64,000 nt of DNA. Origin: a virus. The notes under the pieces are model-generated. The model was not told where the DNA came from. It saw only the letters and a list, made by a program, of their open reading frames with translations, and searched no databases. Of the stretch, positions 9,247-58,656 are shown piece after piece. The position numbers and the translations under genes were made by a program. The stretch lies in IMG/VR virus record IMGVR_UViG_3300021437_000010, positions 13,358 to 77,357 of that record. The stretch is one strand, 5' to 3'. How positions within the stretch are numbered: position 1 is the first letter of the stretch; each line of letters begins with the position of its first letter.

Positions 9247-10149
9247 TTATGCACTATGTGCGCTTAAATCACTATCAAAAGACTTGAGATATGCTTCTCT
9301 GGCCTCTTGTTCAGTATCGAAGTAACCTATATTAATTGTTTTTCCGTTTACACTCCTAGTGCTATGCCATTTACGTCTTTGTTTATGAAAATAGCACCCT
9401 TTAGCAGTTGCTTTAGCTTGCTCTTTATGGTATTCTCTAAGTTTTGCACGCGTTTCGTCTGTTGTAACTCGTTTACTGTTAGCCTCTGACATTTTACGCT
9501 TGGTTTCTACTGATTTCTCTCTACCTTTATGTGTTTCTGATATCTTGCGTCGAGTCTCTTCAGAGGGGTGTTTACCTTTATGAGATTCTGATATCTTATG
9601 TATCTCTTCTTCAGATGAAAATCTGGCCTTTTGAGCCTCTGACATCTTGTGTCGAGTTCCTTCTGAATGAGTTCTACCACTAAATGGATTATTAGTCCCC
9701 ATTCTATCTTCTGACATTTTACGCCGTGTTTCCTCAGATCTGTTTCTGTTAGCCTCTAATATCCTGTGGCTTGTTTCCTCAGATCTCTTTTTGTTACTCT
9801 CGATTATTCTGCGCTTTGTTTCTTCGGAATGTTTCCGCCCAGTGCAACCTTCACCGCCATCAGTAATGTTGGTAAGATTTCCATAGGCTCTCATTGCGAA
9901 TATTAGAGCAACCTCATAATCAAGGGCTTCTTTATCGGTATCGAAGTGCGACAAGATAGTTTTTTGCACTTTGCCTCCATTACTCTTAATCTTACGTATA
10001 ACACTATATTTGTGAGGATTGCAAGATTTTTGCCCTTGACACGTGTGGCTATGTATACGGTTATTCCTGCCTTTGCCAACGTAAAACACTATGCCGTCAG
10101 GTCTTGAAAGAGTATAAACATAGGGCTTGTTAGCCTCTATTCCTAGCAT
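9247..10149 (-). CDS. GIY-YIG-like homing endonuclease with NUMOD3 repeats and C-terminal AP2-like domain
   Basis: YVY..FYVGKG..R, E..LI and N.TDGGEG; repeated H/RSEET(R/K)RK(I/M)SE; KGCYFHKQRRKW..IGYFDTEQEAREAY. Confidence 0.8.
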   Translation of the reverse strand: MLGIEANKPYVYTLSRPDGIVFYVGKGRNNRIHSHTCQGQKSCNPHKYSVIRKIKSNGGKVQKTILSHFDTDKEALDYEVALIFAMRAYGNLTNITDGGEGCTGRKHSEETKRRIIESNKKRSEETSHRILEANRNRSEETRRKMSEDRMGTNNPFSGRTHSEGTRHKMSEAQKARFSSEEEIHKISESHKGKHPSEETRRKISETHKGREKSVETKRKMSEANSKRVTTDETRAKLREYHKEQAKATAKGCYFHKQRRKWHSTRSVNGKTINIGYFDTEQEAREAYLKSFDSDLSAHSA

Positions 10150-10343: not shown

Positions 10344-10550
10344 TTTTCCTTCTCCTTCTCCATTTTCTGGGCTTGATATATCCAAGTGCAAAAGGCAACA
10401 GGAGAAGCGCGTAGAGCACAAGGCCTAGCTGCTGATGGCTCATAAGCCCCTCCCCCTGATTATGCTACCTGTATATGCGCTCCCAATGCCTGTTGGTTGT
10501 CTCATGAACGTACAGACGGCCTTCATCTGTATAAATGTCGGCCTATCGTT

Positions 10551-10605
10551 CATGCTTGCTCTCCTCTGTAAGGGTGTCCGATTGACGGACACCCTGATGA
10601 TGTAC
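10551..10605 (-). repeat. hairpin+RBS cassette, copy 1 (copy 2 at 11123-11178)
   Basis: Near-identical flanks CATG(C/A)TTGCTCTCCTCTGTA and GATGAT(G/C)TACA around a 10-bp stem AGGGTGTCCG/CGGACACCCT. Confidence 0.8.
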
Positions 10606-10607
10606 AT

Positions 10608-10826
10608 TTACGATTGGATAGTCCAGCTCAGATCGTCCTGAGCCTGGTCGTGGCCTAGAGACGTCCACATGAGCGCAATCTCCTCCAACGCCTCGCAGCT
10701 CTCACAAGTGCCGCGTAGACGGCACTTGTCGCAAACGAGATATCCGCATCCCGTGCAAACTTCAATATCATCAATTGGATATTGGTCTAAACACACGTGG
10801 CATGTTCCTATTGGTATGTGTTGCAT
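10608..10826 (-). CDS. small Cys-rich (Zn-finger-like) protein
   Basis: Four CxxC pairs. Confidence 0.5.
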   Translation of the reverse strand: MQHIPIGTCHVCLDQYPIDDIEVCTGCGYLVCDKCRLRGTCESCEALEEIALMWTSLGHDQAQDDLSWTIQS

Positions 10827-10939: not shown

Positions 10940-11125
10940 TCAGACATTTCTTCCATCCTCCCGCCTTTTCAATGTGTCTTTCAGCGTATCAAGGATCTCC
11001 TGGCTACATTCTTTGCCAGATTGAGATACAGACGTATTTACGTTGCTCCCCCACTCTTCTATCTTCTGCTGCAATTCCCAATCAGTCAAACCCTTCAAAT
11101 GACCCTGTAGTTCGTGGTCGATCAT
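10940..11125 (-). CDS. hypothetical protein
   Basis: ATG at 11125 after AGAGGAG. Confidence 0.5.
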   Translation of the reverse strand: MIDHELQGHLKGLTDWELQQKIEEWGSNVNTSVSQSGKECSQEILDTLKDTLKRREDGRNV

Positions 11126-11178
11126 GATTGCTCTCCTCTGTAAGGGCATTCGTCAAACGAATGCCCTGATGATCTACA
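11123..11178 (-). repeat. hairpin+RBS cassette, copy 2
   Basis: 10-bp stem AGGGCATTCG/CGAATGCCCT with the same flanks as 10551-10605. Confidence 0.8.
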
Positions 11179-11186
11179 ACTACGCC

Positions 11187-13154: not shown

Positions 13155-13367
13155 CTATGCACAACGGTGTTCATTGTACCCGTAGGCACTAACCATTTCT
13201 CCACACATTGGACACTTTACAGCTACGATACTACGCCTTTCAACTTCAATAGCCTGCGCTAGACTCTCGTAGAGTCTTTTGGCTACGGGACTCACATCAT
13301 CCCACTGTTTCGCGTGGGGATGACTCGTTGCCCACTGCTCATGTACGTTCTGTCCTGTAATCATCAT
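13155..13367 (-). CDS. hypothetical protein with C-terminal Zn-ribbon
   Basis: CPMC...HRC; AGAGGA RBS. Confidence 0.5.
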   Translation of the reverse strand: MMITGQNVHEQWATSHPHAKQWDDVSPVAKRLYESLAQAIEVERRSIVAVKCPMCGEMVSAYGYNEHRCA

Positions 13368-23019: not shown

Positions 23020-23547
23020 CTACCTCAGAATGCTAAACGGCTTGGAGCCGAATGATCCGCGCTGGCCGAGGTCCTCTGTGCGCTTGCGCGACTTGATTTC
23101 ACGACATTCCGCAACCAGATTGCGCTTGCCTTCTGCTTTACGTGAGATATATCCTACAAGGTCAAATCTTTCTTTCCTCTCATTTGAGAGAGATACAACA
23201 TTGTACTTTGGTTTCTCATCATCACGAACAAGTTCTCCCGTGTCAGACCAGACATAACAACAGCGTTCGTGGTTCCAAGTGGGCTTGTGCTCTACAACCA
23301 CTGGTGCAGGCGTTTCTCCTTGCATTGCCTGCTCCCACTCATTCCAGTTGCTGTTGCCTTGCGCTACAGGAGCCGCAACCATCTCACGACGCTCTAGCTC
23401 AAAGCGAGCATCATAGCTGGCCCAGCGGTTTTTGAGTGCTAGGACTCGCTCGTGTGAGATGAGCCACTTAAGGTACTTATCATCACACGAGCTAATCTCT
23501 TTTCCCTTATATTTCTTCCCGAAATTGATGATCATATTGTTCGCCAT
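23020..23547 (-). CDS. protein with N-terminal DUF3820/ExoX-C-like motif
   Basis: NFGKKYKGKEI....KYLKWL pattern. Confidence 0.55.
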   Translation of the reverse strand: MANNMIINFGKKYKGKEISSCDDKYLKWLISHERVLALKNRWASYDARFELERREMVAAPVAQGNSNWNEWEQAMQGETPAPVVVEHKPTWNHERCCYVWSDTGELVRDDEKPKYNVVSLSNERKERFDLVGYISRKAEGKRNLVAECREIKSRKRTEDLGQRGSFGSKPFSILR

Positions 23548-39696: not shown

Positions 39697-40887
39697 ATGA
39701 GCAGAAGGCATAGTGTTGTAAGACATCAGGCAAATTACTTCTATGTTCCACTAGAAGATGATTTTCTTGCTATGTATGAAAAAATTGCCAAAGAACTAGA
39801 TCCTGAAAAGATACAGCAAGGTAAGCCAAAAAGCGCATCTAGTGACTGCAAGGCAATGATTGCTGCTATCCTTGAAGGATGGATGAATAGTAAACGGACC
39901 ACGGCCAAAGGCGAAGAGGACCTCTACTCTTACTTCTCTATCGACCAGCTAGTACAACAACTCAGAGGGCGATACAAGCGAAGTGTAATAATCCAGTGCT
40001 TAGGAGAGATGGAAGTAGAAGGAACCTGTACTGATCCCCAGACAGGCGATATACACACGGGAACCATCAAAAAGCGCCCGTATCTTCAAAACATGTACGG
40101 TTACGTTTTAAACCTACCCGTAGTACAAGCACTTATAGATGCTTTACCAGAACAATCACCCTATGACATCAAAGCCAGACCAATACTTGGGCGTCCAAAG
40201 AAAAGCAGTCCAAAAACGGACGGTATTTCTGAAGAATGCAGTCCAAAAAAAGACTGCATTAAAGAAGAGAAAAGCAGTCCAAAAAAAGACGGTATTTCGG
40301 TAAAGCAGTCCAAAAACGGACCGATTAACGCGAAAAGCAGTCCAAAAAAAGACACCCCGTTCTATACACAGAATAGTAATACACAGAATAGTAATAACAC
40401 AGAAGGAAAGAACGTAGGTGGCAAGACCATTCAAGCCACAAAGACCGAACCGGATTCGTCCACTCTTTCGCTCACTTCTTCTTCGTCTTCTCAACTTCTC
40501 CACATTGGGGAGAAGTTATCCACGCAAGAGACCGTGACTCCAAGTCAAATACCAGTACCCTCCGAGTCAAATGAAGTGAAGCGGGTACAGGGATATTGGA
40601 AGAGTCTGGGTCTCATAGTCAAAATCTCCGAGCACTGGGTCATTCTTTCTGAGCATGTCCACAGCTTTGAAGAAATGGACAGCCTCTTTAAGCATACGCA
40701 GTCCTGGGTTAATAACAACCCTCGTGTTACAGACAAAACAGTCCATCCTGGCAATCTTGTGAATTGCCTCAATGGCTGGAAGCAAGCACAAGTGTCACTC
40801 ACTCAAGTCAGTCAGACAAAAGAAAAGGAAGTCGTAACCGTTGGGAATAGGCATCTTGTGAGTTTTAGTTCACGACCACGATTGTAG
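39697..40887 (+). CDS. phage replication initiator (O-like), contains iterons
   Basis: Directly upstream of dnaB; N-terminal wHTH-like region, central low-complexity linker with DNA repeats. Confidence 0.65.
   Translation: MSRRHSVVRHQANYFYVPLEDDFLAMYEKIAKELDPEKIQQGKPKSASSDCKAMIAAILEGWMNSKRTTAKGEEDLYSYFSIDQLVQQLRGRYKRSVIIQCLGEMEVEGTCTDPQTGDIHTGTIKKRPYLQNMYGYVLNLPVVQALIDALPEQSPYDIKARPILGRPKKSSPKTDGISEECSPKKDCIKEEKSSPKKDGISVKQSKNGPINAKSSPKKDTPFYTQNSNTQNSNNTEGKNVGGKTIQATKTEPDSSTLSLTSSSSSQLLHIGEKLSTQETVTPSQIPVPSESNEVKRVQGYWKSLGLIVKISEHWVILSEHVHSFEEMDSLFKHTQSWVNNNPRVTDKTVHPGNLVNCLNGWKQAQVSLTQVSQTKEKEVVTVGNRHLVSFSSRPRL
40205..40402 (+). repeat. iterons and AT-rich repeat (candidate origin 2)
   Basis: Five GCAGTCCAAAAA at 40205, 40238, 40274, 40305 and 40337 (spacing 31-36 bp), then tandem ACACAGAATAGTAAT. 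Confidence 0.8.
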
Positions 40888-40896
40888 GAGAAAACC

Positions 40897-42240
40897 ATGG
40901 AAAAGCAATTACCACAAAATGTTGAAGCTGAGAAGTGCGTTCTGGGTAGCATTCTGATCGACTCTGAGTCTATTACACTGGTAGCTGACTTCCTCAAGTC
41001 GAACGATTTTTACCGCAATGAGCATAGGCAAATCTATAGCGGTATGCTCAGTATTTATGCTCAACATGAGCCAGTAGATTTTCAGATACTTGCTGAGCAG
41101 CTAGAGCGTGATGGCCAACTAGAGGAAATCGGTGGATTTAGCTATCTCATGTCACTCATGAATGAGGTGCCTACCAGTAACAATATAGAGTCTTATGCGC
41201 GTATCGTCAAGAAGAAAGCAGAAAAGCGAGAATTGATTAGAGCAGCTGGGATAATCGCTCAATCTGCTTATAGTGAGGATGAAGACGCTCTTTCGAAAGC
41301 AGAAGAGTTAATTCACTCTGTTAATCAGGGTAAGAGCATCGCTCGTATAACATCTCTTCAAGATGCCGTTTCGCGTTTCATCACCAAGTTAGATAAGTTG
41401 CATGAAAATCGGCTTAAAGGCGTTGTGTCTGGTGTGCCTACTGGGTTTAGAGTGCTCGATCAAATCTTGGGAGGTTTTCAGCCCTCTGATCTTATTGTCC
41501 TTGCAGCCAGACCCGCCGTTGGTAAAACTTCACTTGCTCTAAACGTTGCATTGCGCATTATCAAGGACACAACGCATAAGGGCAACAAAATCATGATGTT
41601 CTCCCTAGAGATGGGAGAGGAACAGTTAGTTCGTAGGCTGATGTCAATGGAAGCAACGGTTGATCAAACGCGGCTGAGGACCGGAGACATTGAGGATGAT
41701 GAGTGGGAACGGATTATGGCCGCCGCTGGTACGCTCTCAACTGATCGGATGTGGATTGATGATACACCTGCCATCTCGCTTACAGAGATGAGAAGCCGTG
41801 CACGCCGTATTCAATCTGAGCATGGGCTAGACTTGATCCTTGTTGACTACATGCAACTCATGAAAGCAATGCAACCCAACGGTAAACACATTGAGAACCG
41901 GACGCAAGAGGTATCTACCATCAGTCGTGGTCTCAAAGAGTTAGCAAGAGAGCTAAATGTCCCCGTAGTAGCGCTAGCACAATTGTCCAGGGCAGTTGAA
42001 AACCGCGCTGACAAGACACCTCAATTGTCTGATTTGCGTGAAAGTGGAACGATTGAGCAAGATAGTGATGTCGTGATGTTCATTCATCAAGATCCTAGCC
42101 AAGAGATGAAAAACAACGGCTATGCACTAAACATCATGGTAGCCAAACATCGTAACGGACCTGTAGGAGTTGAGACGCTGTGGTTTACACCGCATCTTAC
42201 AAGGTTTTCTGACATTGAACAGCAATTTAATGCTGACTAG
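40897..42240 (+). CDS. dnaB: replicative DNA helicase
   Basis: LPQNVEAEKCVLG, LAARPAVGKT, ILVDYMQL, PQLSDLRESGTIEQDSD and KHRNGP. Confidence 0.95.
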   Translation: MEKQLPQNVEAEKCVLGSILIDSESITLVADFLKSNDFYRNEHRQIYSGMLSIYAQHEPVDFQILAEQLERDGQLEEIGGFSYLMSLMNEVPTSNNIESYARIVKKKAEKRELIRAAGIIAQSAYSEDEDALSKAEELIHSVNQGKSIARITSLQDAVSRFITKLDKLHENRLKGVVSGVPTGFRVLDQILGGFQPSDLIVLAARPAVGKTSLALNVALRIIKDTTHKGNKIMMFSLEMGEEQLVRRLMSMEATVDQTRLRTGDIEDDEWERIMAAAGTLSTDRMWIDDTPAISLTEMRSRARRIQSEHGLDLILVDYMQLMKAMQPNGKHIENRTQEVSTISRGLKELARELNVPVVALAQLSRAVENRADKTPQLSDLRESGTIEQDSDVVMFIHQDPSQEMKNNGYALNIMVAKHRNGPVGVETLWFTPHLTRFSDIEQQFNAD

Positions 42241-42261: not shown

Positions 42262-43017
42262 ATGAATACACCAAATCAAGATCGCATCCAAGAGTTACGT
42301 ACAATGCCATACGAGGCATACTTGAAGACGTCAGAGTGGAAAGCAAAGCGAGATCAGTCACTGGAGCGTGATGGTTATCGCTGTCGCGCCTGCAATAGTA
42401 GCGAAAAACTACATGTACACCACCGCACTTATGCACGACGTGGGAACGAAGATATCAATGACCTGACCACTCTTTGCCAGAGTTGCCATGAACACTTCCA
42501 CAAAAAGATAAGCCAGACTGAAATCATGGTACAAACCTATGATGCACCTGTAGTCATTCTTTCTAACGAAGAACAGGCTCTACGTTTGGAAGACCAATTA
42601 ATTGGTCTGATTATGCGGTATCCCGATGTGTGCCCGCATCTTGCAGGAATACTCCAGGAATGTGATTTTATAGATACCAACACACAAGAATTGTTCTGTG
42701 TATTCAGCAATACATATTCTTCTGATGCTTCTTTTACGCTTCAAAATCTTGAACAATTTGTACCATCAGGCCTGATGCCTACTGCACTCAGGGCGATGAA
42801 GTCTATGAAGTTAGAACATCTGATTGATGAGGCAAAACAAGTGAAATACGCTAGAAAGATAGCAATGCGCATGAAACGCTTGATGTTGTCGAGATCAAAC
42901 GAAAAATTGCAGGTGCTTATAGAAGAGGCTGCTATTTCAGGTGATATTGCTGCTGAGGGTCAACTCAGACGAAATATACAAGAAAATCGCAAACTAATGC
43001 TGATACTGCATATGTAG
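42262..43017 (+). CDS. HNH endonuclease with C-terminal helical domain
   Basis: CRAC, LHVHHRTY and LTTLCQSCHEHFH; C-terminal LEDQLIGLIMRYP.. resembles the DnaG C-terminal region. Confidence 0.7.
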   Translation: MNTPNQDRIQELRTMPYEAYLKTSEWKAKRDQSLERDGYRCRACNSSEKLHVHHRTYARRGNEDINDLTTLCQSCHEHFHKKISQTEIMVQTYDAPVVILSNEEQALRLEDQLIGLIMRYPDVCPHLAGILQECDFIDTNTQELFCVFSNTYSSDASFTLQNLEQFVPSGLMPTALRAMKSMKLEHLIDEAKQVKYARKIAMRMKRLMLSRSNEKLQVLIEEAAISGDIAAEGQLRRNIQENRKLMLILHM

Positions 43018-50984: not shown

Positions 50985-51251
50985 TCACTTAGGTAGGAAA
51001 TGTAGCACAAGATAACCGATAACAGCCGTTGCTGTAACTGCTAACACCCACTGAACTATATCATTCCTCATTTTTAGACGTTCAAGGATCTTACCAACGA
51101 TGATTTCATTTTTTCGTATATCTCTGATATCATCATCGTGTACTTCAGATCTTTTCATCATTTGTTTGAGCTGCTCGTCTGTTCTGATTTGCAGCTCTAC
51201 TATCTTCTCTAGGAGATGATCGTGTTGGTCAATTCTTGGGTCGGGCATCAC
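50985..51251 (-). CDS. XhlA-like coiled-coil plus TM protein (holin-associated candidate)
   Basis: Coiled coil then one C-terminal TM helix; in the lysis cluster. Confidence 0.5.
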   Translation of the reverse strand: MMPDPRIDQHDHLLEKIVELQIRTDEQLKQMMKRSEVHDDDIRDIRKNEIIVGKILERLKMRNDIVQWVLAVTATAVIGYLVLHFLPK

Positions 51252-51424
51252 TGCACTGCCGACAATTTTACAATCTGCGCTGCAAGCGTGTTGATCTGTA
51301 GTAAGTTTTTTGCTGCGGGCAATTGCTGCAATGTCGTGATCTCGTCCTGTAATGCAATAATTTCTTGTTTTAATTGCTCGTTTTCAGTTTGTAATTGTGT
51401 GATTAGATCTTTGTCAATGTTCAT
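51248..51424 (-). CDS. small coiled-coil protein (not in ORF track)
   Basis: AGGAGG RBS; MNIDKDLITQLQTENEQLKQEII..., 58 aa; stop overlaps the next start. Confidence 0.6.
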   Translation of the reverse strand: MNIDKDLITQLQTENEQLKQEIIALQDEITTLQQLPAAKNLLQINTLAAQIVKLSAVQ

Positions 51425-51442
51425 GTTAAAAACCTCCTAAAC

Positions 51443-51539
51443 TTGCTTGTAGAGCCATTTTGTGGTATACTGATGAGGTCAAATTGACATGGTTTTGCCC
51501 CCGCGTAATTACAATTACCGGAGGCGTGATAACAAGGAG
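51443..51539 (+). promoter_or_regulatory. conserved promoter and structured leader, copy E1
   Basis: TTGCTT-17-TATACT, GAGGTCAAATTGACATG, 29-nt bulged hairpin, GTGATAACA; matches 56198-56294. Confidence 0.85.
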
Positions 51540-51551
51540 TTCACCCAAGTT

Positions 51552-52586
51552 ATGCCTAACAGTATACCAGAAAAGCCTACTCAGTGCGCATTCGATTTTG
51601 AAGCGCTTACCGTTCAATCTTCTGAACAGGAAGTTTATAAATTTACTGAGCTTCATCCTCCCTCTATGAAGCAGTGTACTAGATGTAAGAAGCACAAACC
51701 TGCGACGACTGAGTTTTTTAACCGCAAGAGAAAGACATCCCTTAATTCTTGGTGTAAACAGTGTATGACTGAATACATGAGAGAGAAGCGCGGGACCCCT
51801 GAACCTCCTCCTGATGGATACAAACAGTGCAGTGTGTGCAAGCAAGTTAAACCCGCTACACGTGAGTTCTTTGAACGTAGCAGGACATTTCAACGTCAGA
51901 GAGAGTCGAAATGCCGTCAATGTCAAGAACGAATTGCAATTGACAACCGTGAAGATTCGCAGCAATCTTTGAGACAATGTAGTGCATGTGAAAAGTGGAA
52001 ACCAGCCACCATTGAGTTTTTTCACCAACGCAATGCCAGGAAATCGGGGCTGTCTTCTTGGTGTATAGACTGTCATCTTGGATACAACCAAGCGCATATA
52101 GAGAAACGCACGCAATACAATTTTGATTATCGTCAAACGCACAAAGAAGAGGCGCGTTTGAGCCTTAAGCGATGGAAGGAAAACAACAAGGAATACATCA
52201 GAACACGCAGTAGGAGATATTATATAGAAAACAAGGAACGGATGAATGAACATGGAAAGCAACACTATCGGTCTCATAGAGAACAAAGGAAAGCACTCAA
52301 TCGCAACCGACGCGCTCGCAAGAAAGCAATTCCTGGCACACTGACTGCTTCGCAGGTACAGCATAAGCTGCGATTGCAGCATTTCCGATGTTACTATTGT
52401 TCTGCTAAGTTTGAGAGAAAAAATGGTAAGTACATCTACCATCTTGACCATATTGTTCCTCTTTCCCGCCCAGAAGCAGGGCCACGTCACGATATGTCTT
52501 CTACTGCTATTGCTTGTCCTTGTTGTAACTTGAGTAAAGGGACAAAGCTGCCTCACGAGTGGCCTAATGGAGGTAGGCTTCTTTAA
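51552..52586 (+). CDS. freestanding HNH endonuclease with three N-terminal Zn-ribbon repeats
   Basis: Three QC..C...KPAT.EFF...S.C..C repeats; CYYC, HLDHIVPLS and CPCCNLSKG; antisense to flanking genes. Confidence 0.85.
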   Translation: MPNSIPEKPTQCAFDFEALTVQSSEQEVYKFTELHPPSMKQCTRCKKHKPATTEFFNRKRKTSLNSWCKQCMTEYMREKRGTPEPPPDGYKQCSVCKQVKPATREFFERSRTFQRQRESKCRQCQERIAIDNREDSQQSLRQCSACEKWKPATIEFFHQRNARKSGLSSWCIDCHLGYNQAHIEKRTQYNFDYRQTHKEEARLSLKRWKENNKEYIRTRSRRYYIENKERMNEHGKQHYRSHREQRKALNRNRRARKKAIPGTLTASQVQHKLRLQHFRCYYCSAKFERKNGKYIYHLDHIVPLSRPEAGPRHDMSSTAIACPCCNLSKGTKLPHEWPNGGRLL

Positions 52587-53548
52587 GAGCTAGCGAGTTG
52601 TTTGATCTGCGCTAACTTAGTCTGTTCAGCTTGAAGTTCTTGAGCTAGCGTAGATTGTTGTAAAGACGCAATTTTCCCTTGCAGTATAGTGATCTGGGGG
52701 TCTTGTCCAACTCCTGAATCGATATGTGCCATATATACGGGACCCGTAGATCCAGGTGGGTTATCTATCAATCTGCTTGGATCATAAATAAGTACCCCTC
52801 TTTCAAATCTTTGATATACTGTGCCTATCTTGCCTGCAATACCATTTTCTACCCCTGTAGGAAGACCGAGATGAGTAAGACCACATAAGGCATCTCCACC
52901 AAACTTGCGGTAAAAGTCTAGTATCGCATGCCCAATAACAAAGCCGTTTTTACATGTCCACATTGTATTATCGGTGCCTGAAAAGTGGCTGGCTACTGTT
53001 GGATTAGTTAAATCTATTGTCATAGGTTGGTCTCCTCCATTTAAGTAAGTCCAGAGAGCATTCCAGTCCAGAGCCCCTGGACATCTAGCGCGATTTATTG
53101 GGTCGATGGATGCATGGGGAGCTATACCAGTATTGTTATCAGCTTCATGCATACCTATGCCGTTCCGTTGGCAGATGTCTTTTATGAGTGCAAAACTTGA
53201 TTTTTGCTGTTCTGGAGTAAGAGCATTTGAATTATCGGTTGATAATTTTACGTGCTCTATACTGATAGTATAGTAATTCGGGTTTCCAGTCCAATTAGGA
53301 TTGTTTACGACACCGTTAGCATAGCTTCCATCCTTCTCACTAATGGTTTGTACTACAGTTCCATCTTGACCTACAATGTAATGTGAGCTTACAGGCTCAC
53401 TCCCACCTTCAGTGCTTTTGAAATAATCTGCAATGCCTTGGGCACTAGACCCGCCAGCAGTACCGTGAACTATTATAAAGCTTTTCTTGCCTGTGTCGGG
53501 GAAGAAGTTATTATTAGGGGACCATATGGCACTAGGATAATCAGGCAT
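52583..53548 (-). CDS. N-acetylmuramoyl-L-alanine amidase (Amidase_2) endolysin with LGFP-like repeat
   Basis: IIVHGTAG, SSHYIVG, ISIEH and PHASI..RCPG; LGLPTGVE..VYQRFERG. Confidence 0.9.
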   Translation of the reverse strand: MPDYPSAIWSPNNNFFPDTGKKSFIIVHGTAGGSSAQGIADYFKSTEGGSEPVSSHYIVGQDGTVVQTISEKDGSYANGVVNNPNWTGNPNYYTISIEHVKLSTDNSNALTPEQQKSSFALIKDICQRNGIGMHEADNNTGIAPHASIDPINRARCPGALDWNALWTYLNGGDQPMTIDLTNPTVASHFSGTDNTMWTCKNGFVIGHAILDFYRKFGGDALCGLTHLGLPTGVENGIAGKIGTVYQRFERGVLIYDPSRLIDNPPGSTGPVYMAHIDSGVGQDPQITILQGKIASLQQSTLAQELQAEQTKLAQIKQLASS

Positions 53549-53753
53549 TAGTTTGCTCCTTCTGCACAGTTACGCGCTCAATAGGTGGCATCACTGCATT
53601 TTGCACTATCTCTCCAGGTGATTTGAACCACCATCCTATCACTATTGCCGCTATAGCAATAACTGTCTCTTTTGAGCTTGGAGATATCCAAACAAGAAAG
53701 CTGCAAAAGACAATCACCATCGCGCTTACAGCAGCATACGGCCAAAGGTTCAT
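53541..53753 (-). CDS. putative holin
   Basis: 70 aa, two TM segments, adjacent to the endolysin. Confidence 0.6.
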   Translation of the reverse strand: MNLWPYAAVSAMVIVFCSFLVWISPSSKETVIAIAAIVIGWWFKSPGEIVQNAVMPPIERVTVQKEQTNA

Positions 53754-53764
53754 ATTTCCTCCTT

Positions 53765-54094
53765 TTATGGTATGCATTCCCATATTCCAAATTTCAAAGT
53801 TCGTTGCGATGTTGTGCCTTTCTTGGCAACAACTCTTGTGTCATTCATTCCAGTCAATGCAGCATCAGCAGATGACAACGTGTACGTTATTTGCGCTGGA
53901 TTTCCGCCACTGGCTGCTACTAGATTGCTAAATGTACCTGTGCCGTTTGTTGCTTGTTTATTCGAAATATTGATCATCACAAGTGTAAAGTCAGTTGTTG
54001 CTAGTCCTGTGATGTCAAAATTACCGCTATCAGGCACTAAGCTAAATGTCCATGGTGGCTTGCCATCTCCTTGGTTCCATGGTGAGATGCCCAT
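53765..54094 (-). CDS. putative virion structural protein (BppU/Ig-like)
   Basis: Beta-rich, in the late operon; GD.KPPWTFSL, ITYTLSSAD. Confidence 0.5.
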   Translation of the reverse strand: MGISPWNQGDGKPPWTFSLVPDSGNFDITGLATTDFTLVMINISNKQATNGTGTFSNLVAASGGNPAQITYTLSSADAALTGMNDTRVVAKKGTTSQRTLKFGIWECIP

Positions 54095-54095
54095 A

Positions 54096-55829
54096 TTATG
54101 CTCCTTTCAGTATAGCTATGCCGTCATGTGTATTGCCTGTTAAAATACCGTCGCGCGTATTGCCCAATGCTGATCCATCACGACCATAGCCAACTGCCAA
54201 AATAATTATTGTTGGCAATACCGCCAATTGTGATAGCGATCCACTATCATTGCTGATATTCGACTCAACACCTGAATACGTGTCTAAAAATACTGCGATA
54301 TCTACAGCGTTTAATGCTTCGATTGGAATATATATACTCGATATGATGAGTATGTCTGAGCCTGTGCTGACATCAACTCTCCAACTCTGCATGCCACCAA
54401 AATCAATACCCACCGAGCTGTCCGTGCCGTTCATATTGTTGGTTGTAATCCCTGCCGATTGCTGTGTAAGGCCACCGCTGCTTGCATCATCGATAGTATT
54501 ACTCTCTATGAGGATAGTATTATCGATAGCTAGTAGGCTGTCTGCACCCGACAAAGCCTCTACACCGTTCTGCTGCACGCCATTAATATCAGAGCCCGTA
54601 CTAGCATCAACAGTCCATTGCTGAATACTGCCCAGGTCACTAACAGAATTGTTCTCAATTAGTACGGCCGTATCTATAAATATTGAGTCATCAATGCCAG
54701 TATTGTTTTCTGTGAGTACTGTATTTACAGTATAAAGAGTATTATCTGAAATAGTATTGTTATCAATGAGGATTGTACTGGCCGTGGCTAATAAGTTGTC
54801 TGTTCCTGTAAGCGTATCGATCCCACCTTGCTGCATGCCGCCGACATCATTAGTTGTATTACTCTCTACAAAGACGGTGTTGTTTATAACAAGCAAAATA
54901 TCAGATACGGTGTTATTGTCCGTAAATACGGTATTGTAAATATAGAGTGTAGAGTCGGAAATAGTATTATTTTCAACAAGATTTGTGTTCTCAATTGCCA
55001 AGAGGCTATCAGCTCCAATATTGTTCTCGATCAAGACAGCATTATCAGTAAATAGGAGGCTATCTACTCCTGTAAGTGCCTCTATTCCCCATTGCTGTGT
55101 TCCTGATACATCACTTCCCGTAAGCGCTTCTATCCCTGATTGTTGAATACCGCCCACATCTGACCCAGTAAGTGCATCGACTCCCCAACTCTGCATGCCA
55201 CCAAGATCACTGCCTGTGTTGCTATCCGTGCCTGACATGGTGTTTGTGGTAACACCGCTGCCGTTATCGGTGACAGTCAGATGGTCGTAATATCCTGTTC
55301 CGCCTCCTGGTTGGAAGTATGCTCCATAGCGACCGGCGGCGGAGAAAGTTGAATCAGTCACGCTCAACTGCGGTGTGCCTGGTTCGCTATTTCCATCAAG
55401 CCACACAGTTGCACTAAGTGAGGTATTGGATAACACCATGCGTATCCAACAATATTGGTTTGCGCCGTATGAGAAACTTGTGTTGGCAAGATTTGTGTGC
55501 GCATTTGATACAATCTTATCAAGATTGAACGTCTGACTATGTAAATAGGCCAGATAACCGTTAACTCCAGATGAGTAACGGCCAAACACTCCGATATTTG
55601 TACCATTGGAGTCAGTGGCACAACGTATAAGAATATTGACGGGTGCAGACGTACCGGAGCTTATTTGAGCATAGAGATCATTTCCTACTACAGCGGTTCC
55701 TTCGTTAGAGGCAATATTCGTTGTGCTGACCACGCCAGACGTATCCATGGTATAAGTCGATCCATCACTGGCAGTACCCCAACCGCTTTGGTTTGTACGA
55801 ATAAATGTATCAGTTGCAAGTGTTGTCAT
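54096..55829 (-). CDS. virion/tail protein with N-terminal ConA-like lectin domain and 16/18-aa Asp/Asn repeats
   Basis: Repeats GSD.GG.Q.W..(D/E)ALT and ..D.....N.....(D/E)NN; start set to MTTLATD. Confidence 0.65.
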   Translation of the reverse strand: MTTLATDTFIRTNQSGWGTASDGSTYTMDTSGVVSTTNIASNEGTAVVGNDLYAQISSGTSAPVNILIRCATDSNGTNIGVFGRYSSGVNGYLAYLHSQTFNLDKIVSNAHTNLANTSFSYGANQYCWIRMVLSNTSLSATVWLDGNSEPGTPQLSVTDSTFSAAGRYGAYFQPGGGTGYYDHLTVTDNGSGVTTNTMSGTDSNTGSDLGGMQSWGVDALTGSDVGGIQQSGIEALTGSDVSGTQQWGIEALTGVDSLLFTDNAVLIENNIGADSLLAIENTNLVENNTISDSTLYIYNTVFTDNNTVSDILLVINNTVFVESNTTNDVGGMQQGGIDTLTGTDNLLATASTILIDNNTISDNTLYTVNTVLTENNTGIDDSIFIDTAVLIENNSVSDLGSIQQWTVDASTGSDINGVQQNGVEALSGADSLLAIDNTILIESNTIDDASSGGLTQQSAGITTNNMNGTDSSVGIDFGGMQSWRVDVSTGSDILIISSIYIPIEALNAVDIAVFLDTYSGVESNISNDSGSLSQLAVLPTIIILAVGYGRDGSALGNTRDGILTGNTHDGIAILKGA

Positions 55830-55898
55830 ATTGCCTCCTTTCTTCTCATATTTGCTATAAATGAGTGCACAGGAACGCCATGCACTCATTGCTCTTTT

Positions 55899-56117
55899 CT
55901 AGCTAATCTTTATTGTTACATGATGCCCTACAAGATTTTTAATAGCCGTAAGAGCTTCTACAGGTGCGTTGTACCAACGCCACACAATGGTTGTAGGCGA
56001 GCTATTCACAAGTTCGCATCCTTTGCCATCATGCTCAGCATGGATAGTTGATCGTATCGCATCGGTATTTGCGGTAACGATAATATGTTCTGTCGGTGTT
56101 GGTACGGTTTCTGGCAT
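55899..56117 (-). CDS. hypothetical late protein
   Basis: 72 aa with AAGGAG RBS. Confidence 0.5.
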   Translation of the reverse strand: MPETVPTPTEHIIVTANTDAIRSTIHAEHDGKGCELVNSSPTTIVWRWYNAPVEALTAIKNLVGHHVTIKIS

Positions 56118-56197
56118 TGTAAACTCCTTATGTTCTAATTAATTGGAATGTGTCGAGTGAAAAGCAACGTTGAAAAGGCCGTAAATAGGCGGAGATG

Positions 56198-56294
56198 TTG
56201 CTTTAGTGGCTGACTTGTGGTATACTGAAGAGGTCAAATTGACATGTGTTTGGCCCAGCGATGCTGAAACATCCTGAGCCGTGATAACAGAAAG
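56198..56294 (+). promoter_or_regulatory. conserved promoter and structured leader, copy E2
   Basis: TTGCTT-17-TATACT, GAGGTCAAATTGACATG, 29-nt bulged hairpin with compensatory changes versus E1, GTGATAACA. Confidence 0.85.
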
Positions 56295-56306
56295 TTGGTT
56301 TCTGCT

Positions 56307-57485
56307 ATGGATAGTATTGTACCTCAATCCGACCAAAAACACCAGCTCCGTAGTGACTATTATGTTTACTACCTCAATCGTCCCCCAAAACCTGATACTC
56401 CTAGCCACCTTATTAACCCTGATGGAACTGTCACGTTCTATATAGGGAAAGGCAAAGGGGCTCGTTTTCAGCAACATGAATGGTGTGCTAAGAGAGAGCA
56501 AAAGTGTAGACATCTGACATGTCGTGTTATTCGGAAGGAATGGCGCAATGGCGGACAAATCGCCAAAGAGAAAGCCTACGAAGGCCTGACTGAGTCTGAA
56601 TCTCACGAACTTGAAAAGGCACTTATCGCTTACGGGCGTTCGATCGGATTGCCATTGATCAATCTCACTGATGGGGGAGAGGGCATTTCTGGATACAAAG
56701 GTGATACTCACCCACCCTCGCAAAGAGAAAACCACCGCCAAAGCATGAAACGAAACTATTCTGACCCTGAGAAACTTGAACGCTTTCGGCAAGTTCATAT
56801 TGAGTGGTGGGAGAATAACCACCAGGCACGTGAAGCAGTCAGAAAGAGATTTGAAGATCCTGCTGTACGTGCCAAGGCTGGTGAAGCAAACATCGGTAAT
56901 GCCTACCATGCCAAGACATACGAAGGGTTTCAGAGCCCGATGGGTCAGGTCTATACAAACGTTCACCATCTCAAGAAGTTTTCTGAAGAGCACGGACTCC
57001 TTTCTGCCAAGATGTGTCAAGTAGCCAATGGAGAGAGACTCTCCCATAAAGGTTGGACTAGATATCCCCCGTTGGAGAGAGAGCAAAAACCGACCTATGC
57101 AAAAGCGGGGTTCAAAGATCCGAACGGGGTCATTTATGAAGCTGAGTCCATCCCTAGCCTTACTGATTTTTGTCGTGAGCATGATTTGGCAAGGACATGC
57201 ATGACACAACTTGGAACAGGAACGCTTCATTCGCATAAAGGATGGACACGTTACCCTGAAATCAAGGCGGAACGAGACTATCACGGAACCTATACGGGTC
57301 CGTCTCTTTTGAGCCCAGAGGGTACCGTGTACACCACTGAAGAGATCGATAATCTTACTGCTTTTTGTCATAAACATAACCTGCAAACTAGCAATATGTC
57401 CCTTGTTGCTCAGGGAAAACAACGTGCCCACAAGGGGTGGACAAGATTCCGACCTGAAGACCCTGCCCAATCCACTCTGTTCTAA
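56307..57485 (+). CDS. freestanding GIY-YIG-like endonuclease with three C-terminal repeats
   Basis: YYVYYL..FYIGKG..RF, E..LI and INLTDGGEG; three repeats ending HKGWTR(Y/F); antisense to late genes. Confidence 0.85.
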   Translation: MDSIVPQSDQKHQLRSDYYVYYLNRPPKPDTPSHLINPDGTVTFYIGKGKGARFQQHEWCAKREQKCRHLTCRVIRKEWRNGGQIAKEKAYEGLTESESHELEKALIAYGRSIGLPLINLTDGGEGISGYKGDTHPPSQRENHRQSMKRNYSDPEKLERFRQVHIEWWENNHQAREAVRKRFEDPAVRAKAGEANIGNAYHAKTYEGFQSPMGQVYTNVHHLKKFSEEHGLLSAKMCQVANGERLSHKGWTRYPPLEREQKPTYAKAGFKDPNGVIYEAESIPSLTDFCREHDLARTCMTQLGTGTLHSHKGWTRYPEIKAERDYHGTYTGPSLLSPEGTVYTTEEIDNLTAFCHKHNLQTSNMSLVAQGKQRAHKGWTRFRPEDPAQSTLF

Positions 57486-57530: not shown

Positions 57531-58656
57531 GCTTCACCTGACATGAGGCTGAAATGTTATTGCTGTTGTCACATCTCATAGGCGTATTTATAAGATGATC
57601 AACATAATTGTTAGCTGCTGCTGCTGAACTGACATTGACAAGCCAGAAAGTTGTATAGTTCAGTTTTGTTACTCATGCACTTTATGCATGGACTATCTCA
57701 TTTCTGGATAGTTCTCTGGTTTCATTCGCTATAGCCAGAGGTCGGATCGTATCTTACCTTTCGGCCCTGCGTGCGATCTCTACGGCGTCCCTTGCGGGTT
57801 CCCTCGGTATTGTCCTTGCGTTAGGAGTTCCACCGATACAGCAGGTTATCGATCAAGCAACCTTTTTGGCTACTTGAAAGCGGCAACTATTTCTTTTACC
57901 GTTTGAAGTAGATCCTCCATTCGTTGAATTCTTGAAGACGAATACAGTTGTCATACTTCTATTACCCGCACCAGTTGTAGCAGATCCAGTAAATGCTCCT
58001 GCTGACAAGTTACCACTGTACTGCTCAAGTACGCTACTTTGGTTTGCTTTCAAGTTAGCGTTTGATGGATTTTCCGCAACGTTAGGAATTGGCACAACAG
58101 CAGTTCCAATGGCATACGCTGCATTCGATGTGTAAGACACTGTTGTCAGGCTGGTAGCATTTTGAGTTGCAGCACCGTTCATTGAAACCGTTTGCGTCTG
58201 TCCAGTCCCGAAACCGACTAAAATCTGTGTTACGGTAGCATTGGCAGGAGATGGGTAGTTTAGCGGTATCGCAGCTGGTATCGCTGCAACTGCTAGGCTT
58301 GTAACGGCAGTCTGACCATTGGTGAGAGCTGTCGTCAAGGTTGTACTGCCATCGTTATTGTTGATATAGATGTTGTTGAAGACAGCAGCAGGAACAGCAT
58401 TGTTAATAGCGCACGTCAGTATATTCAGTGCGCCCTGGTCAGTAAGTGTTTTATTTGACCAAACGCGCTTTTTTGGTTTCCCTGTCTTGGCATCGGTCTG
58501 GACAATCTCCCACAGACCAGTAGGTCCGTTCTCACGAGCGCTGTACATCTTCGAAAAATCTGCGAAGTTGCGAGGCCGTACCGAACTTTTCCAGTACGGA
58601 GCATAATCTACAATCAGCTCTTCGCTGTCGTATGAACGATCTAAAATCGCTTGCAT
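57526..58656 (-). CDS. virion/tail structural protein, spliced (exon 1 58656-57898, exon 2 57660-57526; 297 aa)
   Basis: Joining GGT|AAC gives an open frame ...STSNG-NYTTFWLVNV...SCQVKL*; the track ORF ends prematurely inside the intron. Confidence 0.8.
57661..57897 (-). ncRNA. group I self-splicing intron (237 nt, ORF-less)
   Basis: P1 (exon CGGU / IGS GCCG with U-G pair), P10 (AUAGUU / exon AACUAU), P2, P3, P4, P5, P6, P7 (GAUCG/CGAUC with bulged A), P8 GAAA loop, J8/7 AAGAUA, three P9-region hairpins, terminal omega-G. Confidence 0.9.

Follow-up and report, generated by a model that had tools for sequence, protein, structure and literature searches.

A cassette shared by unrelated phage nuclease genes, with a structure conserved on the antisense strand and a predicted antisense RNA

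Two copies of one module ahead of unrelated nuclease genes

The window analysed here is a stretch of 64,000 nucleotides (nt), positions 13,358 to 77,357 of the uncultivated virus record IMGVR_UViG_3300021437_000010, which is 94.5 kb in length and is referred to below as G000. Within it, two unrelated nuclease genes of an uncultivated phage have in common a cassette of approximately 130 base pairs (bp), and this cassette, together with the RNA predicted to arise from its antisense strand, is the subject of this report. A repeat search gave two copies of the module on the plus strand, E1 at 51443-51554 and E2 at 56198-56309, with 77% identity over 82 nt. The exact 17-mer GAGGTCAAATTGACATG occurs twice in the window, and its 15-mer core GGTCAAATTGACATG has two exact occurrences in the complete 94.5-kb record.

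The gene behind E1 (51552-52586, plus strand) encodes an HNH endonuclease (PF01844) of 344 amino acids (aa) with zinc-finger repeats, while the gene behind E2 (56307-57485, plus strand) encodes a GIY-YIG-like endonuclease of 392 aa with NUMOD-like repeats. These assignments agree with an earlier note, made by a model from the sequence alone, which had described the two proteins as unrelated. Both genes are opposed to the surrounding minus-strand genes, among them the endolysin gene.

Direct reading of the sequence located every element named in that note in both copies. The forward promoter of E1 occupies 51443-51471 on the plus strand and consists of TTGCTT (51443-51448), a 17-nt spacer and TGgTATACT, the -10 hexamer being at 51466-51471. 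Downstream of it lies a palindrome, GTCAAATTGAC, at 51478-51488, which has no strand of its own and may form an optional small hairpin (P1). The 29-nt hairpin P2' of the antisense RNA follows at 51497-51525 on the minus strand, with 7 bp including one G.U pair, a bulged G and a further 5 bp, and GTGATAACA (51526-51534) stands directly after it. Hairpin P3' of the same RNA is located at 51529-51553 on the minus strand; its first base is complementary to the T of the start codon, and an anti-Shine-Dalgarno CUCC is located in its loop and 3' arm. A candidate reverse promoter, P_rev (TGGTATACT), was found on the minus strand at 51561-51569, within codons 4-6 of the HNH gene, with a predicted start at approximately 51553 and with 7 nt between the end of its hexamer and the first base of P3'.

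The layout of E2 is the same. Its forward promoter is at 56198-56226 on the plus strand (TTGCTT at 56198-56203, a 17-nt spacer, TGgTATACT with the -10 hexamer at 56221-56226), followed by the palindrome or optional hairpin P1 at 56233-56243, again with no strand, and on the minus strand by P2' at 56252-56280 and P3' at 56284-56308. The latter has 10 bp, one of which is a G.U pair that becomes an A.C mismatch on the sense strand. A candidate reverse -10 hexamer, TACAAT, is present on the minus strand at 56316-56321, within codons 4-5 of the GIY-YIG gene, and its predicted start is at approximately 56308.

Two other readings of the area around the palindrome were tried and rejected. The TTGACA of the palindrome was considered as a second forward promoter and has no usable -10 element 16-18 nt downstream. 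A hammerhead built from CUGAUGAG beside the palindrome would have its CUGA overlapping the -10 element and lacks a GAAA after stem II, and Rfam was silent there. Small open reading frames (ORFs) were looked for in the RNA of either strand and none was conserved.

Further copies and a structure conserved on the antisense strand

Exact-pattern scans and a first covariance model (R1) led to copies in related virus records. The first ten copies comprise E1, E2, three copies in G002, one each in G001, G003, G004 and G009, and a diverged third copy in the window's own genome (G000:405-485). All ten contain a TTGCTT-like element, 17 nt and TGnTATAMT, and the forward arrangement of -35 element, 17-nt spacer and -10 element is also kept in AT-richer copies. 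A last scan, in which a degenerate pattern for the main hairpin was used and the hits were filtered by a second model (R2), added approximately 15 copies from more distant phages (43-68% G+C).

Each of the first ten copies was folded both ways, and the antisense strand was the more stable in every case, by 0.9-10.8 kcal/mol. The antisense fold was also the stronger in 15 of 16 further copies, giving 25 of 26 in all. RNAalifold, applied to a plain MAFFT alignment of the ten copies, returned two uninterrupted helices on the antisense strand. In this alignment 173 cells were Watson-Crick pairs, 30 were G.U pairs on the antisense strand only, two were G.U pairs on the sense strand only and eight were unpaired on both strands; among the same ten copies every cell of the P2' helix was paired on the minus strand. 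In the alignment of 25 copies, standard pairs on the antisense strand accounted for 507 of 534 pair cells (94.9%), made up of 435 Watson-Crick pairs and 72 G.U pairs restricted to that strand, with seven G.U pairs restricted to the sense strand, and controls in which the alignment was slid gave 34-46% pairing. Hairpin P3', which was used in no search pattern, alone contributed 39 antisense G.U pairs against four on the sense strand. Both sides had changed in 20 of the 22 pairs of the 25-copy alignment, the observed values were reached in none of 500 shuffles, and the consensus folding energy by RNAalifold was -32.2 kcal/mol for the antisense strand against -19.9 for the sense strand. The wobble asymmetry, the folding energies and the folding of the alignment together indicate a selected structure on the strand opposite to the gene, and this structure is conserved and co-varying.

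The antisense RNA would open directly with the 10-bp hairpin P3', the first base of which is an A complementary to the T of the ATG; CUCC (anti-Shine-Dalgarno) lies across its loop and 3' arm. A linker, UCAC, then leads to P2', in which a bulged G separates 7 bp from a further 4-5 bp, and which typically has a loop of the form UU...AG and is followed by AA. In the string GTGATAACA the 3' arm of P3' is joined to the linker CAC; the string pairs with the start-codon region (the A and U of AUG). The third small hairpin, P1, which is the palindrome of the earlier note, is present in a subset of copies only, with other stems at that place in two loci (L083 and L181). From the complement of the start codon through the leader, the RNA element overlaps the ribosome site and start codon of its target on the opposite strand.

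Compensatory change in the 29-nt hairpin, which the earlier note had described from E1 and E2, was borne out in five of ten pairs among the first four copies and in 10 of 12 pairs among 25 copies. Its conserved C-A mismatch turned out to be a G.U wobble on the other strand, replaced by a U-A pair in L101 and with a perfect stem in L085, and its bulged C is a bulged G of the antisense strand. The co-varying second hairpin, P3', which takes in GTGATAACA, had been overlooked.

A TAnnnT hexamer ends 5-7 nt (mostly 7) ahead of the first base of P3' on the minus strand in 22 of 25 copies, compared with 11% of control windows of equal width in the same genes; a -10 hexamer is present at a fixed distance from the hairpins. 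The hexamers include TATACT, TACAAT, TATAAT, TATAGT and TATGCT, often with TGG directly before them, and give a consensus of GGTAYAMT, with a common TG extension, within codons 3-6 of the cargo ORF. The string ATTGTACC reads I-V-P in L101 and L-Y in L083, and an S-I-P frame also occurs among the copies; the use of one nucleotide string in differing frames argues that it is under no protein constraint. The reverse hexamer has the form seen in the forward -10 element and also in further promoter-like sites of this genome. The predicted forward and reverse starts face each other at a distance of approximately 76-80 bp, so that the two RNAs would overlap across the entire nuclease leader. The idea that the two -10 elements are matching halves of an inverted repeat, either of an invertible segment or of a closing helix, was rejected because the left and right hexamers drift independently (TATACT and TACAAT in E2, TACAAT and TATGCT in L090).

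A nuclease gene lies downstream of all ten first copies, with four HNH genes, one HNH_3 gene with an AP2 domain, three Endonuclease_7 genes and two GIY-YIG genes. The nuclease cargo of further copies included three HNH genes, one Vsr/DUF559 gene with NUMOD3 and three NUMOD4/HNH_3 genes. The link to nucleases is near-exclusive in the well-scoring members. Judged by their domains the cargo genes are mostly putative homing endonucleases of at least five families, which would probably be harmful to the cell. A Rha-type regulatory gene follows the cassette in L167. In L199, a contig of another uncultivated phage, two cassettes stand 1.8 kb apart, as in the window, one with a NUMOD4/HNH_3 gene and the other with a Vsr/DUF559-like nuclease gene (L199:5196-5923 and L199:6977-8172). 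The window's own genome also holds nuclease-domain stretches that have no cassette, namely two HNH stretches above the cut-off, a weaker HNH stretch and two GIY-YIG stretches; cassette-free HNH/GIY-YIG stretches are located at G000:C1:9772-10268, 23255-23485 (window 9898-10128) and 55739-55861 (window 42382-42504). The cassette is thus one of several set-ups for such genes in this genome.

The reach of the family was limited in the other collections that were searched. Cultured phages gave no blastn match to the module, a metagenome scan returned no new copy, only an L004 duplicate, and a loose pattern matched 68 stretches, nearly all of them chance matches. The covariance model found no copy in three Ktedonobacteria/Chloroflexia genomes, no pattern hit in 169 genomes of that class resembled the module, and eight pattern hits in cellular genome contigs were unlike it, the covariance model also being without a match at all eight loci. 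A word search with the shared protein N-terminus returned the query only. Comparison with the 4227 models of Rfam release 15, a check which the earlier note had proposed, gave no match at gathering level in the window and none at E <= 1 in six loci holding copies.

A possible antisense brake and the alternatives to it

We interpret the module as a portable two-way control cassette in which an antisense RNA brakes free-standing nuclease genes, and we consider this reading reasonably probable. On the gene strand the host-type promoter (TTGCTT, 17 nt, TGnTATAMT) would give rise to the nuclease mRNA with a leader of approximately 80 nt, while on the opposite strand the -10 element in nuclease codons 3-6 would give rise to an RNA beginning at the complement of the start codon. 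The stable 5' hairpin P3' of this RNA would present the anti-Shine-Dalgarno sequence, and the RNA could pair with the leader, the ribosome site and the AUG of the nuclease mRNA. The facing promoters may in addition interfere with each other through convergent transcription. Pairing and interference together would hold synthesis of a potentially toxic nuclease low, as for SymR with symE and sar with P22 ant. Where the cassette is oriented against a late operon, as it is in the window, the antisense transcript would run toward the interrupted downstream genes, a possible secondary effect.

From the conserved structure and the interchangeable nuclease cargo, the earlier note had suggested an undescribed nuclease-associated RNA, a mobile cassette end or a shared regulatory switch. 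Its undescribed RNA was retained, as part of a portable regulatory cassette and with the RNA moved to the other strand. We regard the element as a new RNA family with at least 25 members and no Rfam match, whose nearest kind is the cis-antisense control of a harmful gene. Some of the weak family members may be chance matches. A bolder version, which we offer tentatively and rate at somewhat under even chances, treats the two-promoter cassette as a standard safety harness of selfish nuclease genes across a broad range of uncultivated phages. Its structured antisense RNA would be an antitoxin-like brake, recombination would have passed the unit between nuclease families, at least five and unrelated, and now and then to other risky genes, and a unit lying backwards in a late operon may re-launch the interrupted genes.

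The placement of the hairpins in the 5' leader of the nuclease mRNA, as in the earlier note, is one alternative, since the element has a good promoter on one side and the ATG on the other and since P2 and P3 can form on the sense strand, where P3 pairs the A and U of the AUG. The hairpins could then act as a protein-binding site, as a start-codon-hiding switch of the T4 I-TevI type or as an mRNA stabiliser. We consider a sense-strand leader quite unlikely. It would turn 72 pair cells into A.C mismatches and gain only seven sense-specific wobbles, it has the weaker fold in 25 of 26 copies and the weaker consensus energy (-19.9 against -32.2 kcal/mol), and it leaves no role for a reverse -10 hexamer that is kept across reading frames. 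The minus-strand RNA might instead serve outward, keeping the genes cut off by a backwards nuclease insertion expressed, in which case the cassette would supply a promoter together with a stabilising 5' hairpin leader, and in some cases also a ribosome site, or would act as a put-like termination-resistant leader. In keeping with such a restart, the cassette ends of E1 and L003 read AGGAGG, 6-8 nt and the ATG of the next leftward ORF, E1 splits off the endolysin tail as a 58-aa ORF (described below) and no terminator follows the hairpins. However, approximately half of the copies are co-oriented with their neighbours and have no minus-strand gene to serve, AGGAGG is present in only two of 25 copies, so that a cassette-borne leftward ribosome site is not general, homology stops approximately 10 nt past the -35 element, and a host-type promoter that expressed lysis genes early would do harm. 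This explanation also appears unlikely.

An element which works as DNA and whose RNA has no function, either a recombination hot spot or PeSL-like joint, or a single-stranded DNA hairpin or protein-binding palindrome for homing or replication, would explain how the cassette came to be joined to a Rha gene as well as to nucleases of at least five families, an arrangement that calls for recombination just past the first codons, and why alleles exist with and without the insert; DNA hairpins also tolerate G.T pairs. Two helices that keep pairing through 20 doubly changed positions are not needed by a homology patch, however, and the bulge and loop ends are conserved across widely diverged phages, with the start of the hairpin locked 7 nt after the -10 hexamer. 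The hairpins of the cassette are moreover downstream of both promoters, while PeSL hairpins lie over the promoter (PMC2839356). We regard a purely DNA-level role as very unlikely.

Several observations weigh against the proposed braking cassette. Among the weaker members, several have cargo that is non-nuclease or of unknown kind, namely a helicase, a Rep protein, a Rha-type regulator and, in four cases, an unknown gene. The sense strand forms weaker versions of both hairpins, one of which includes the AUG, and could have a role of its own, and the G.T asymmetry would be compatible as well with a hairpin in single-stranded DNA. For P_rev no -35 element could be recognised at 16-18 nt, a simple promoter scanner called neither the forward nor the reverse promoter, and no clear intrinsic terminator for the antisense RNA was found near either window copy. 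RNA runs holding this phage were sought and none was found, and the antisense transcript is a predicted one. There is also a bias in the sampling, as the pattern by which 15 of the 25 copies were obtained had parts of P2' and of its flanks fixed and allowed U.G on one strand only, and as the alignment of the 25 copies had been fitted to the model. The checks which are free of this bias are the first ten copies, hairpin P3' and the alignment-free folding; all of these agree.

The free-standing and intron homing endonuclease genes of phage T4 (seg, mob, I-TevI) have their own promoters, start-site hairpins and low expression. They resemble the genes described here in being selfish nucleases with private expression signals, the insertion of which can split host genes. 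The control of the T4 genes, by contrast, combines a hairpin at the ribosome site of the sense strand with promoter timing. In the cassette the A and U of the AUG are taken up in sense P3, a hairpin with A.C mismatches at the places where the antisense strand has G.U. The sar RNA of phage P22 is transcribed from a promoter that faces P_ant. P22 sar/ant and lambda OOP/cII are, like the element proposed here, short cis-antisense RNAs of phages which limit a harmful or regulatory protein (PMC5415839), although each of them is tied to one fixed gene without a travelling cassette and there is no Rfam homology.

In Escherichia coli symR has its promoter inside the symE ORF (PMC1891008). SymR is a cis-antisense RNA over the 5' end and translation start of a potentially toxic gene, which encodes a nuclease-like toxin, with its promoter in the target ORF and with transcripts that overlap face to face, as we predict for the cassette. 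There is no similarity of sequence or structure between them; the targets here are phage homing endonucleases known from sequence only, and the RNA has a two-hairpin fold with a bulged G in a unit that is common as a whole to unrelated cargo genes. EcoRI is controlled by the reverse promoter PREV0 and the antisense RNA Rna0 (PMC3141266), a further case in which a small antisense RNA from an intragenic reverse promoter lowers a DNA endonuclease and interferes with the facing promoter. Rna0 is part of the restriction-modification system of a plasmid and is not known to belong to a conserved structured family. The PeSL cassettes of T4-type phages (PMC2839356, PMC4122927) are similar as small repeated units, with a strong host-type promoter and a stem-loop before exchangeable genes, that act as shuffling joints; the corresponding trait here is the sigma-70-like promoter (TTGCTT, 17 nt, TGnTATAMT) repeated before different cargo genes. 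The stem-loops of PeSL overlap or precede the promoter and terminate upstream transcription (PMC2839356). This terminator trait is absent from the cassette, where the distance from the forward -10 element to the hairpins downstream of it is 25-85 nt and neither strand has a U-tract, and where the hairpins, in a stretch between facing promoters that would be doubly transcribed, show strand-specific covariation. The literature searched contained no report of a conserved antisense RNA common to several nuclease families.

Homing endonuclease genes are among the commonest selfish elements of phages, and their expression must allow spread yet spare the carrier. The safety-harness version, if true, would make the element a new RNA family and a new general principle for the way these genes restrain their own cost. 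If the braking cassette is real it would represent a third control mechanism beside promoter timing and sense-strand hairpins at the ribosome site, with one cassette common to HNH, HNH_3, Endonuclease VII-like, GIY-YIG and Vsr-like genes. It would also tie homing endonucleases conceptually to type I toxin-antitoxin systems and to the antisense control of restriction-modification. The covariance model (25 members, 20 of 22 pairs co-varying) can be used to annotate such genes in metagenomes. For motif searches in general the case offers a caution, in that a conserved mismatch may signal an RNA on the opposite strand.

Insertion sites, probable host and other features of the window

The endolysin gene of the window (52583-53548, minus strand) overlaps with its 3' end the stop codon of the HNH gene by 4 nt. 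To the left of E1, with its AGGAGG and ATG directly at the end of the cassette, is a 58-aa ORF (51248-51424, minus strand) that shows homology to the C-terminal tail of relatives' endolysins (E = 1e-6 against the G002 endolysin). Contigs of a related strain from the source sample, which came from a freshwater site, skip from 51358 to 52884 and from 51233 to 52875 and are without the E1 insert. The homology of the 58-aa ORF and these insert-free contigs place E1 within the 3' part of the endolysin gene.

A second pair of alleles was found among the related records. In G003 the endolysin gene is directly followed by the next gene, whereas G001 has at this place a 1.24-kb insert (L092:6985-8224) in which a remnant of a small membrane-protein gene precedes the nuclease gene and the complete membrane-protein gene comes after the cassette. 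The first approximately 20 codons of this holin-like gene are doubled in G001 (L092:7001-7060 and L092:8019-8195), and the doubled start is an insertion scar. The G003 allele and the source-sample contigs that skip E1 speak for mobility of the unit. The antisense insertion into the late operon that the earlier note described does not define the family, given the share of copies that point the same way as the genes beside them.

Among cellular genomes, the nearest relatives of the endolysin were found in Ktedonobacteria bacterium brp13 (L103) and Dictyobacter arantiisoli (L104), with 53% identity. Because these endolysin relatives occur in Ktedonobacteria genomes, the host probably belongs to the Ktedonobacteria, or the relatives may represent prophages there.

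The stretch beside the GIY-YIG gene (57661-57897) gave no group I intron match at the Rfam gathering level, which a divergent intron could escape. At 40199-40361 of the window there are five head-to-tail copies of a 31-33-nt unit containing GCAGTCCAAAAA(C/A)GGAC. These repeats are inside a 396-aa ORF (39697-40887) directly upstream of a DnaB-like helicase gene (40897-42240), and from this arrangement they look like an iteron-type replication origin inside an initiator gene. Two 67-nt copies with 78% identity were also observed at 10546-10612 and 11118-11184; their central 9-10-bp hairpins differ at paired positions, and both pair perfectly.

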